Part shown: piece after piece, positions 1,005-2,091 of the stretch | Layout: every line of letters begins with the position of its first letter | How positions within the stretch are numbered: position 1 is the first letter of the stretch | DNA from: a virus | Taxonomy: Duplodnaviria; Heunggongvirae; Uroviricota; Caudoviricetes | IMG/VR virus record: IMGVR_UViG_2778261341_000003 | DNA length: 7,228 nucleotides | Reading direction: 5' to 3' (one strand) | Notes under the pieces: generated by a model | Told to the model about the DNA's origin: nothing | Seen by the model: only the letters and a program-made list of their open reading frames with translations | Databases searched by the model: none | Translations under genes and position numbers: made by a program

Positions 1005-2011
1005 GCGAAATTAACTCTCAGGCACTGCGTGAAGCGGCAGAGCAGGCAATGCATGACGACTGGGGATTTGACGCAGACCTTTTCCATGAATTGGTAACAC
1101 CATCGATTGTGCTGGAACTGCTGGATGAACGGGAAAGAAACCAGCAATACATCAAACGCCGCGACCAGGAGAACGAGGATATTGCGCTTACGGTTGGGAA
1201 GCTGCGCGTTGAGCTTGAAGCAGCAAAATCAAAACTCAACGAGCAGCGCGAGTATTACGAAGGCGTTATCGCGGATGGAAGTAAGCGCATCGCCAAAATG
1301 GAAGCAATCAAATCCGCTGCGGAAAAACTGGTTCGCTGTAAAGGCCGCTATCACAGTGAACAAAACTATCGTGCACTGGCTGCATTGTTTGGCATAACAG
1401 TGCCGGATTTACCGCCACTGGAAGTCGAACCAGCACTTTATATGAATCGATTTACCAGAAAGACATTCTCACTGGAAGAGCAACCAGGGGCAGATAAGGA
1501 ACCAGAAATATACATGCCGCTATACGCTGCTCCGCCAGCGCCGGTGGTGCCGGAAAAGTTGCCGCGTGAATACAGAAACGGTTGGCCTCTTGCGTATAGT
1601 GATTATGCTGAAGGATGGAACGATTGCCGCGAAGCCATGCTTCAGTCCGGAAACTTTCGCGAAAATACGAATTCATCAACCAATAATTTTCGGAAAATCC
1701 CGGAAACGTCAACCACCCCTCCGGTAACTCAGGCTCTTCTGCTTGGTGGTTTCACCATTGAGGATGCGAAGGAATTACATGAAGACCTGGTACGCAGCCA
1801 CATAAGCAAGGCCTTGAGTGGCGAAAATATGAAAAAGAAAGATCGCGATGCTGATTTGCGCTGGATTCATGGCGTTATAGTTCAGGCAGCGTGGTTTGTA
1901 AAAGCAACACTGGAGCAGAATGCACTATCGGGCAACTCTCCGGTAACTCCGGATAGTTGGATAAGCTGTAGTGAGCGAATGCCGGACGACAGGCAGGAGG
2001 TGAATCAATGA
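1001..2011 (+). CDS. Ea22-like prophage protein (336 aa)
   Basis: GTG start at 1001 with GAGG at 991-994, overlapping the upstream stop (GTGA). N-terminus MSEINSQALREAAEQAMHDDWGFDADLFHELVTPS.. followed by a charged, probably coiled-coil segment and a distinct C-terminal region, as in ead/Ea22-like proteins of lambdoid prophages. Position upstream of xis-int fits. Confidence 0.65.
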   Translation: MSEINSQALREAAEQAMHDDWGFDADLFHELVTPSIVLELLDERERNQQYIKRRDQENEDIALTVGKLRVELEAAKSKLNEQREYYEGVIADGSKRIAKMEAIKSAAEKLVRCKGRYHSEQNYRALAALFGITVPDLPPLEVEPALYMNRFTRKTFSLEEQPGADKEPEIYMPLYAAPPAPVVPEKLPREYRNGWPLAYSDYAEGWNDCREAMLQSGNFRENTNSSTNNFRKIPETSTTPPVTQALLLGGFTIEDAKELHEDLVRSHISKALSGENMKKKDRDADLRWIHGVIVQAAWFVKATLEQNALSGNSPVTPDSWISCSERMPDDRQEVNQ

Positions 2012-2091
2012 GCTGGCCTGATGCAATCGTAACTCTGGGGGTGGTATTCGCAGCAGCGTTTGTTGTGTTCTCGATTTGTCGATGGGGATAA
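2008..2091 (+). CDS. 27-aa hydrophobic single-helix peptide (MSWPDAIVTLGVVFAAAFVVFSICRWG), not in the ORF track
   Basis: ATG at 2008 overlaps the Ea22-like stop (ATGA). Perfect AGGAGG at 1995-2000 lies 7 nt upstream. TAA at 2089-2091 is 4 nt before the next ATG at 2096. Core of about 18 hydrophobic residues. Confidence 0.35.
   Translation: MSWPDAIVTLGVVFAAAFVVFSICRWG

Follow-up and report, generated by a model that had tools for sequence, protein, structure and literature searches.

A conserved 27-codon gene for a predicted single-pass membrane peptide in the early operons of Escherichia coli phages

The locus

The stretch of DNA analysed here (the window, 7,228 nucleotides from IMG/VR virus record IMGVR_UViG_2778261341_000003) is the left arm of a lambdoid prophage together with its junction with the host chromosome. 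Between a gene of the Ea22 type and a DUF4222 gene it holds an 84-base open reading frame (ORF), here called the micro-gene, which is left as an unannotated gap between the flanking genes in the RefSeq and phage records that were inspected. An initial annotation, made from the letters alone, had proposed that this frame is a translated small gene, coupled to the gene before it and encoding a hydrophobic peptide with one helix. The elements on which that proposal was built, namely the Shine-Dalgarno (SD) sequence and its spacing, the ATGA overlap with the Ea22-like stop, and the frame end just before the next gene, were all confirmed by direct reading (Table 1). In the overlap, the TGA of the upstream ORF (2009-2011) shares bases with the ATG at 2008. 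The arrangement AGGAGG-N7-ATG occurs a single time in the window when both strands are counted, where 0.03 occurrences are expected from 200 shuffles. Upstream, the micro-gene frame is closed by an in-frame stop at 1972, and no further start codon lies between that stop and the ATG at 2008. No promoter-like site was seen near the micro-gene in the window sequence, so we place it inside the early-left operon. The setting had been described as a prophage early region, which can now be specified as the lambdoid early-left (exo-xis) operon.

Table 1. Features of the window that bear on the micro-gene or are mentioned in the text
Feature	Position	Strand	Remarks
ORF following the DUF1382 gene	389-472	+	27 codons, hydrophobic; MTTTECIFLAAGFIFCVLMLADMGLVQ
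Ea22-type gene, DUF551 C-terminus truncated	1001-2011	+	336 codons; Pfam Ead_Ea22 1.9e-27
Longer antisense ORF	1925-2176	-	83 amino acids
Shine-Dalgarno AGGAGG	1995-2000	+	7-nucleotide spacer to ATG 2008-2010; read from sequence
Shorter antisense ORF	2005-2097	-	30 amino acids
Micro-gene	2008-2091	+	27 codons and TAA (2089-2091); translation MSWPDAIVTLGVVFAAAFVVFSICRWG
Predicted single transmembrane helix W3-W26	2014-2085	+	hydropathy and AlphaFold2
Likely ribosome-binding site of the DUF4222 gene, GGGGA	2084-2088		inside the last codons of the micro-gene
DUF4222 gene	2096-2338	+	Pfam DUF4222 8.2e-14; 4 nucleotides past the micro-gene stop
ORF following the DUF4222 gene	2342-2431	+	29 codons
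DUF72 gene	4035-4850	+	GTG start at 4035

Conservation and recurrence of the unit

Disruption of the frame, or its lack of conservation in related prophages, had been named beforehand as grounds for abandoning the prediction. This was examined, and the frame held. A pattern scan of IMG/VR returned at least 120 contigs and, together with loci found earlier, 130 matches. The pattern fixed codons 1-6 and 24-26 and the spacing, which leaves as informative positions codons 7-23 with their open frame, codon 27 as a sense codon and codon 28 as the stop. Exactly 27 codons were found in 128 of the 130 matches, which comprise 54 distinct DNA alleles and 35 distinct peptides. When 97 bases were used in a BLAST search, at least 981 of 5,426 complete E. 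coli genomes were found to carry copies, with up to four in one genome and with 127 places on plasmids. A scan of one genome per species (185,579 species, strict pattern) matched E. coli twice, Shigella flexneri twice and one member of the Oscillospiraceae. The last of these, at 266-349 (-) of the metagenome-assembled contig CALXDM010000004.1, could have arisen by chance or be a distant homologue. The protein searches also returned Salmonella and E. albertii entries.

To see where conservation begins and ends, 87 distinct contexts of 324 bases were anchored on the ATG and mean pairwise identity was calculated along them. Identity is 0.35-0.43 from -120 to -16, rises to 0.71 over the SD sequence and spacer (-15 to -1), with 0.93-1.00 at four G/A bases of the SD sequence (-13 to -10), stays at 0.79-0.93 through the ORF, and is 0.38 in the first 15 bases past the stop. 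As delimited by this profile, the conserved unit is the SD sequence plus the 27-codon ORF, moving as a cassette among phages of E. coli and Shigella. Its settings include lambdoid early-left and nin operons, phage-plasmids and a virulent phage of the Vequintavirinae. Gene-caller products with N-terminal extensions share before the Met merely "GG", the in-frame reading of GGAGG.

Selection was assessed on a minimum spanning tree of the alleles, using codons 7-23, which lie outside the search pattern. Changes at codon positions 1, 2 and 3 numbered 41, 32 and 83. The ratio of nonsynonymous to synonymous change per site (pN/pS) was 0.43-0.45 in the frame of the micro-gene and 1.0-1.6 in the two remaining sense frames; over all five alternative frames, four gave about 1-1.8. 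Synonymous changes made up 78 of the 163 observed, against 55 ± 5.7 when the same changes were placed at random, and none of 2000 simulations reached 78. To judge from this substitution pattern, the peptide sequence is under purifying selection. The two antisense ORFs of Table 1 were considered as candidates and set aside: the 30-residue frame gave a pN/pS of 0.97 and is open in only 44 of the 54 alleles, the 83-residue frame gave 1.43 and is open in only 18, and the start of the shorter ORF falls in the variable downstream flank.

The micro-gene recurs in neighbourhoods that have little else in common. When the peptide was compared with phage genomes by tblastn, full-length matches at 52-63% identity were found in quite different genomic places, and eight of these matches were opened in detail. 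In all eight phages the 27-codon frame is intact, and the gene annotated upstream stops four bases past the start of that frame, with a longer overlap in JLK-2012. In 933W the copy stands before sokW/hokW, as it does in VT2-Sakai, whose copy was confirmed on the Sakai chromosome. In ArgO145 it precedes a terminator and a convergent toxin-antitoxin pair, in the virulent Vequintavirinae phage Av-05 it lies among co-directional hypothetical genes, and in vB_EcoS-613R10 it belongs to a replication or nin-type region. The copy of the "Actinobacillus" phage vB_Apl-pPE4 precedes a Hok-family gene. Excisionase and integrase genes follow in both Stx2a_WGPS2 and PhiR49_2, after a pseudogene fragment in the former and short hypothetical genes in the latter. 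All tblastn and BLAST copies in the inspected records have 27 residues, save that the JLK-2012 copy (MNWPEAFTAVGVAIAVAFILYSLFRWG) has 27 or 28 depending on which of two adjacent ATGs is the start. In further E. coli genomes it stands ahead of hokD in a nin region, on a 99-kb plasmid, and behind a dATP/dGTP pyrophosphohydrolase gene. The context is always one of co-directional, tightly packed phage early genes. The copy in Sakai prophage Sp5 (VT2-Sakai), MTWPEAFANVGTVMAVVLVVYSICRWR, is unannotated at NC_002695.2 1305785-1305868 (-), between ECs_1246 and the mokC/hokC-like ECs_1245, and the 933W peptide is identical to it. The allele of the window itself recurs unchanged in PhiR5_1. Of the K-12 prophages, Rac and Qin were searched and no copy was found in either.

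The flanks of the unit are mosaic. In 131 of 134 related loci an upstream frame, open for a median of 168 codons, ends at the TGA that overlaps the ATG; most upstream genes are of the Ea22/DUF551 type and end in …PLPEPPQEVNQ, another class ends in …KLPDKAMDYLERNGLISVEDVLR, and about ten loci keep merely a 12-codon remnant. Downstream, a hok promoter is found in about 53 of 128 loci (about 40%) and DUF4222 in about 33 of 128 (about a quarter), and there are contexts with a hairpin-terminator-like element or a convergent gene. The DUF4222 neighbour of the window is context and not part of the conserved unit, since it is one of several neighbours found downstream of micro-gene copies. In 933W (L004 1501-1660) and the other loci of the hok class, an apparent hok promoter, TTGCGG-N16-TAGAAT, lies within about six bases of the micro-gene stop and is followed by the apparent 5' end of the hok mRNA (GGGTGCTTGAGGC…). 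Adjacency to hok is seen in the 933W-type right-end module and in nin regions alike, and could be functional or reflect a shared mosaic block. A functional link to hok was considered and dropped, as a separate promoter past the stop serves hok, and no hok gene stands beside the window copy.

A small number of variants depart from the standard length or arrangement. Alleles P0061-P0066 carry in-frame GCGATG (Ala-Met) expansions inside the helix (…GIAMAMAMAVAL…), which bring the peptide to 31-35 residues and lengthen the transmembrane segment by 4-8, and allele P0067 has a two-codon deletion. In a few E. coli genomes the Ea22-type or other upstream protein is fused in frame to the micro-peptide (P0081, P0084, P0124), apparently through deletions or frameshifts; the product would be a tail-anchored form of the upstream protein.

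Family, predicted structure and probable function

A profile of the E. coli sequences was searched against 1.84 billion representative proteins and gave 56 matches at E ≤ 0.001; a second profile search gave 96. One homologue search used two concatenated alleles as its query, and the E-values of that search are not to be taken literally. Beyond the enterobacterial cluster the homologues have 25-60 residues and come from genomes of very different composition, for example MEISWPEAIMWIGIAFAAALAIYSIMRWGD (contig of 36% G+C), MNITNWPEAFTYIGCAFAIAIIFYSMFRWG (29%), …HWPDAFAMVGVAFAFALIVWAVAR… (64%) and …VTWPEAFVIVGLAFAVALVLIAWIRS… (about 64%). Distant homologues keep WP[DE]A[FI]..[VI]G.AFA, and some also keep YS..RWG. 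Pairwise pS is 0.6-1.0 and pN 0.25-0.40; with synonymous sites thus saturated, conservation at such depth can only be at the level of the protein. The contigs that carry these homologues consist of short genes lined up in one direction, for the most part with no Pfam match; one contig has a phage-type pyrophosphatase. In an Acidovorax prophage the copy lies in the repressor-side early left operon, after a Cro/S24-repressor pair; it overlaps the stop of a YqaJ exonuclease gene by four nucleotides, and RdgC and dUTPase genes then follow.

As judged by profile similarity, the micro-gene belongs to a wider, unnamed "WPEAF" family of phage peptides, whose signature is W-P-[DE]-A-F-x-x-V-G-x-A-x-A-x-A, followed by a hydrophobic stretch and a basic residue near the C-terminus. 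Among 62 cores made non-redundant at 70% identity, extracted with a pattern that required the first five motif positions, W3, A6 and G11 are invariant, P4 is found in 61 and F7 in 58, and [DE]5, V10, A15 and A17 are strongly conserved. In alignment A2, which was built without a motif filter, W and G are likewise invariant and A6 is at least 90% conserved. The window peptide reads W3-P4-D5-A6-I7 and so shows W-P-[DE]-A-[FIL] within 2-13 residues of its start. It has the G11 shared by all 62 cores, with V13, A15 and A17 where the cores have A13 (41 of 62), A15 (52) and A17 (46). Its C-terminus is R25-W26-G27-stop, so that the helix ends in a basic residue close to the end of the protein; position 25 is R or K in 40 of the 62 cores. 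Conservation is strongest in the N-terminal half and falls toward the C-terminus, where R/K25 is the main feature, and within the E. coli cluster a C-terminal YSICRWG is nearly fixed. A co-directional, packed early operon surrounds the gene in the window and likewise in 933W, ArgO145, Av-05, the Acidovorax prophage and the metagenomic contigs.

Nothing above threshold was found for the micro-gene or its peptide in Pfam, NCBIfam, PHROGs, PADLOC or Rfam. A literature search on peptide motifs (MTWPEAF, SICRWG, WPEAF and others) found no relevant paper. In a modelling survey of the exo-xis proteins there is no such peptide, the word "transmembrane" is unused, and the three uses of "membrane" shown are unrelated. 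A 40-residue, N-terminally extended form of the window peptide is on record as "MULTISPECIES: hypothetical protein" from 427 contigs, and the names given to homologues by their sources are "hypothetical", "bacteriophage protein" and "putative prophage protein", the exception being fragments mislabelled after the upstream DUF551 gene. The peptide had been called unannotated, which is correct for the RefSeq and phage records inspected and does not extend to some GenBank submissions, where 27-residue members are listed as hypothetical or bacteriophage proteins. It had also been put forward as undescribed; this stands insofar as neither a family model nor a paper was found, and needs amending in that the gene occurs well beyond this prophage, as a widespread cassette. 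What has been found is a new, unnamed and widespread family of phage micro-proteins within a known kind.

The prediction of one hydrophobic helix was borne out by two approaches. The Kyte-Doolittle mean over 19 residues is 2.63 for residues 6-24, well above transmembrane thresholds, and the summed Hessa scale gives -1.85 kcal/mol. AlphaFold2, run with an alignment on the 40-residue extended form, returned one helix at residues 16-39, corresponding to W3-W26, with predicted local distance difference test scores of 91-96, and a disordered extension. Two Trp residues stand 23 positions apart, the N-terminus is acidic and the C-terminus basic. On these models the helix would span the bilayer, probably with its C-terminus inside.

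We consider it very probable that the micro-gene is a real, translated gene for a membrane micro-protein of a conserved phage family. As had been proposed, its behaviour is that of a protein-coding gene which is coupled to the gene upstream and has a ribosome-binding site of its own; the basis for this is its exact length, homology that runs from SD sequence to stop, the synonymous excess, and conservation of the peptide at 29-64% G+C. It appears to serve both temperate and virulent phages as an accessory early gene. According to two papers (PMC8614690, PMC10834534), transcription of the exo-xis genes is among the earliest. The micro-gene would be transcribed with them from the early-left promoter after infection or induction, and translated both from its own SD sequence and by reinitiation at the ATGA overlap. 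The peptide would then insert into the inner membrane as one helix with its two Trp residues at the interfaces, the acidic N-terminus probably outside and Arg25 inside, following the positive-inside rule. There the helix may pack against a transmembrane helix of some inner-membrane protein, from the host or the phage, and modulate that protein. Such packing is the most likely mode of action we can offer, although we hold it only tentatively, by analogy. It is favoured because only 2-4 residues lie outside the bilayer, W3, A6 and G11 are invariant, and small residues occupy positions 13, 15 and 17. Binding of a specific partner is more likely than generic membrane damage or pores.

Short membrane regulators such as MgtR, KdpF, AcrZ and MgtS act by packing against a larger membrane protein. 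The micro-peptide resembles MgtR (30 residues), KdpF (29), MgtS (31), PmrR (29) and AcrZ (49) in its kind, that is, about 27-30 residues forming one helix with Gly or Ala at small positions and almost nothing outside the bilayer. Unlike them, it lies in a phage early operon and not beside a transporter or sensor gene, has no sequence homology to them, and carries a W-P-[DE]-A-F motif of its own. With the KdpF model (TIGR02115) the window allele gave no match and a sister allele a sub-threshold one (14.7 bits against a cut-off of 26.85, E 0.024); no kdp genes are found near the micro-gene in the window.

Several points weigh against a conserved, translated membrane peptide or limit what can be said of it. 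The third antisense frame has a pN/pS of 0.37, which means that this statistic alone cannot pick the strand. The low value is an expected by-product, since wobble positions of that frame coincide with those of the sense frame; it holds no start-containing ORF of at least 20 residues in the window, and the sense strand was chosen because a conserved start, SD sequence and stop are found on it only. Part of the conservation at the codons and spacing fixed by the viral-contig pattern follows from the pattern itself. A single Arg is the basis for the membrane orientation. The conserved positions do not gather on one helical face (helical moment against shuffles, p 0.25-0.29), and one conserved face as a signature of partner binding was therefore dropped, its moment being no higher than that of shuffled sequences. 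Finally, the peptide is missing from the lists of novel small genes in two ribosome-profiling studies of enterohaemorrhagic E. coli (EHEC), though Sakai carries a copy. The Hücker 2017 supplement (Sakai) was searched by peptide motifs, genome coordinates and flanking locus tags, and that of Neuhaus 2016 (EDL933) by motifs, hokW and two locus tags. Both studies used uninduced lysogens, so this absence is a weak negative.

The initial annotation had suggested a small membrane toxin, a Kil-like division inhibitor or a regulatory membrane peptide. All three are candidate roles; the Hok, Kil and holin models give no match. A toxin made on induction, either pore-forming or depolarising like Hok, Ibs, ShoB, DinQ and TisB or inhibiting growth or division in the manner of Kil, is the main rival and in our estimation unlikely. 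The peptide does share with Hok/Gef, Ibs, ShoB, DinQ and TisB a small hydrophobic helix, with a size and extreme hydrophobicity typical of known small toxins, and small residues at alternating positions (G11, A13, A15, A17) would allow self-association. Its place in an early operon would keep it silent in the lysogen, so that no antitoxin would be needed, and it is often found beside a phage hok/sok module, which begins a few bases past the stop in about 40% of homologous loci. However, the Hok, toxin, holin and Kil models of Pfam, NCBIfam, PHROGs and PADLOC find no match in it. Hok/Gef genes also differ from it in having an antisense RNA, a mok-like overlapping frame and a promoter of their own, whereas the micro-gene is part of a polycistronic early operon; no Rfam family was found in the window, and positions 2008-2091 have no antisense promoter-like site close by. 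Charge in the peptide is limited to a single residue at either end, an amphipathic or cationic tail is missing, and the strict N-terminal motif of the peptide (W, P, D/E, A, F, G), kept across distant phages, suggests specific recognition. The window and most other context classes have no hok, and where hok is present its promoter is its own and lies downstream of the stop. Kil, KilR, DicB and CIII are soluble or amphipathic proteins that act on FtsZ/MinC or FtsH. The micro-gene is like lambda Kil, Rac KilR, Qin DicB and lambda CIII in its neighbourhood of non-essential early-left small genes and in size class, but it is unlike them in its predicted integral membrane helix and shares no sequence similarity with them. 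Rac and Qin, the prophages with kilR and dicB, lack a copy, and the peptide has no Pfam or PHROGs match to Kil or KilR. For a holin or antiholin the sole trace is PHROG 20 (holin) at E 0.62 with one remote homologue, and the contexts are early operons, not lysis cassettes.

Other readings dispense with an independent membrane protein altogether, and the evidence leaves little room for any of them. That the roughly 100 conserved bases are a non-coding junction whose frame stays open by chance, be it a recombination "boundary sequence", an RNA element or merely the region where ribosomes bind for the following gene, is very improbable and has been largely refuted already. The unit does sit at a mosaic joint between variable modules, the antisense frames are largely open too, and translation data were not found in the EHEC ribosome-profiling supplements. 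Against this stand the excess of third-position and synonymous changes, homology bounded exactly by the SD sequence and the stop, a downstream gene that differs or is missing in most contexts, peptide motifs that persist at 29-64% G+C with synonymous sites saturated, the lack of an Rfam family match, and the lack of conservation of the two window antisense ORFs. Slightly less probable again is a membrane-anchor tail added to the upstream Ea22/DUF551-type protein by programmed frameshifting at the overlap. The frame almost always follows such a gene with an overlapping stop, an SD-like element stands just upstream as at known frameshift sites, and the in-frame fusions P0081, P0084 and P0124 are in the database. 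No slippery heptamer is present, however, and the main junction classes, …GAGGTGAATCAATGA and …GAGGATATTTTACGATGA, share the SD sequence alone; homology starts at the Met, about ten loci have no more than the 12-codon remnant upstream, and the remote homologues follow unrelated genes. The faintest case is that for a regulatory leader peptide controlling DUF4222 expression. It draws on the four-nucleotide gap to the DUF4222 start and on the likely ribosome-binding site of that gene within the last codons of the micro-gene, but DUF4222 is present in only about a quarter of loci, with a hok promoter, a terminator or a convergent gene elsewhere, and what is conserved is the amino-acid sequence, beyond the mere act of translation.

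Returning to a membrane peptide that binds a partner, a wider version of that reading can be sketched, which we regard as doubtful. The window peptide might be the founding member, accessible in E. coli, of a pan-phage family of "WPEAF" membrane effectors of about 25-40 residues, which would dock, via the invariant W/A/G N-terminal half, on a conserved inner-membrane machine, for early takeover or for countering membrane-based defence, and the micro-gene might also be an overlooked player of the exo-xis/Ea22 region. Candidate machines would be FtsH/HflKC, YidC/Sec, or a component of the divisome or of transport. The exo-xis/Ea22 region influences the lysis-lysogeny decision of Shiga toxin (Stx) phages, and cloned fragments of it alter lysogenisation and the induction of Stx prophages. 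In the window the micro-gene sits among the exo-xis genes (orf60a/DUF1317, orf63/DUF1382, orf61, orf73/TraR and ea22); unlike them, it is absent from the catalogued genes of the region, and an unnoticed micro-gene inside cloned exo-xis fragments could have a share in the phenotypes reported for them. Annotation routinely misses small membrane proteins, and this one is below the usual gene-length cut-offs. It is present in about one-fifth of complete E. coli genomes, including those with the Shiga-toxin phages 933W and VT2-Sakai, and its relatives occur in phages whose hosts differ widely. Annotation pipelines could call it with a family model made from alignment A2. At 27 residues and with a sharply conserved motif, the peptide can be synthesised, tagged, mutated and used in screens for a membrane partner at low cost.

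Other features of the prophage

On the phage side of the window the gene order is DUF1317, DUF1382, an orf61-like gene, a TraR/DksA zinc-finger gene, the Ea22-type gene, the micro-gene, DUF4222, a short ORF, a DUF1233 excisionase and a tyrosine integrase; in nearly identical prophages bet and exo lie directly upstream. On the host side are a DUF72 gene, a MAPEG gene and two methyltransferase genes (one Methyltransf_9), which we take to be the counterparts of yecE, yecN, cmoA and cmoB.

The protein encoded by the upstream Ea22-type gene matches DUF551 only at profile positions 1-16 of 68 and then has the shared …RQEVNQ end, so that the gene looks like one with an internal deletion of the DUF551 core. 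This shortened variant recurs in many loci (…WISCSERMPDDRQEVNQ), and in the closest E. coli record the NCBI pipeline splits the Ea22-type gene into a pseudogene and a DUF551 protein. The short ORF after DUF4222 is a truncated form of a 44-residue "hypothetical protein" annotated in relatives, its stop being created by a single GAA to TAA change at 2429. This nonsense change indicates that the prophage is accumulating damage beside an intact micro-gene.

A second hydrophobic ORF of 27 codons precedes the Ea22-type gene in the window, and its ATG overlaps the TGA of DUF1382 (lambda orf63-like), again as ATGA. It is unannotated in the relatives inspected and has no family match, the best being PHROG 21538 ("membrane protein") at E 0.68. 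With 0-1 substitutions in seven loci, including Sakai Sp5, it is too invariant for a test of selection.

At the integrase end of the prophage, the DUF72 gene overlaps with its GTG the integrase gene, which stops at 4069, and its Pfam match starts at residue 25. Its N-terminus is apparently phage-end sequence, with the junction near 4070, which is consistent with insertion of the prophage into the DUF72 gene, presumably the yecE site used by Stx phages.

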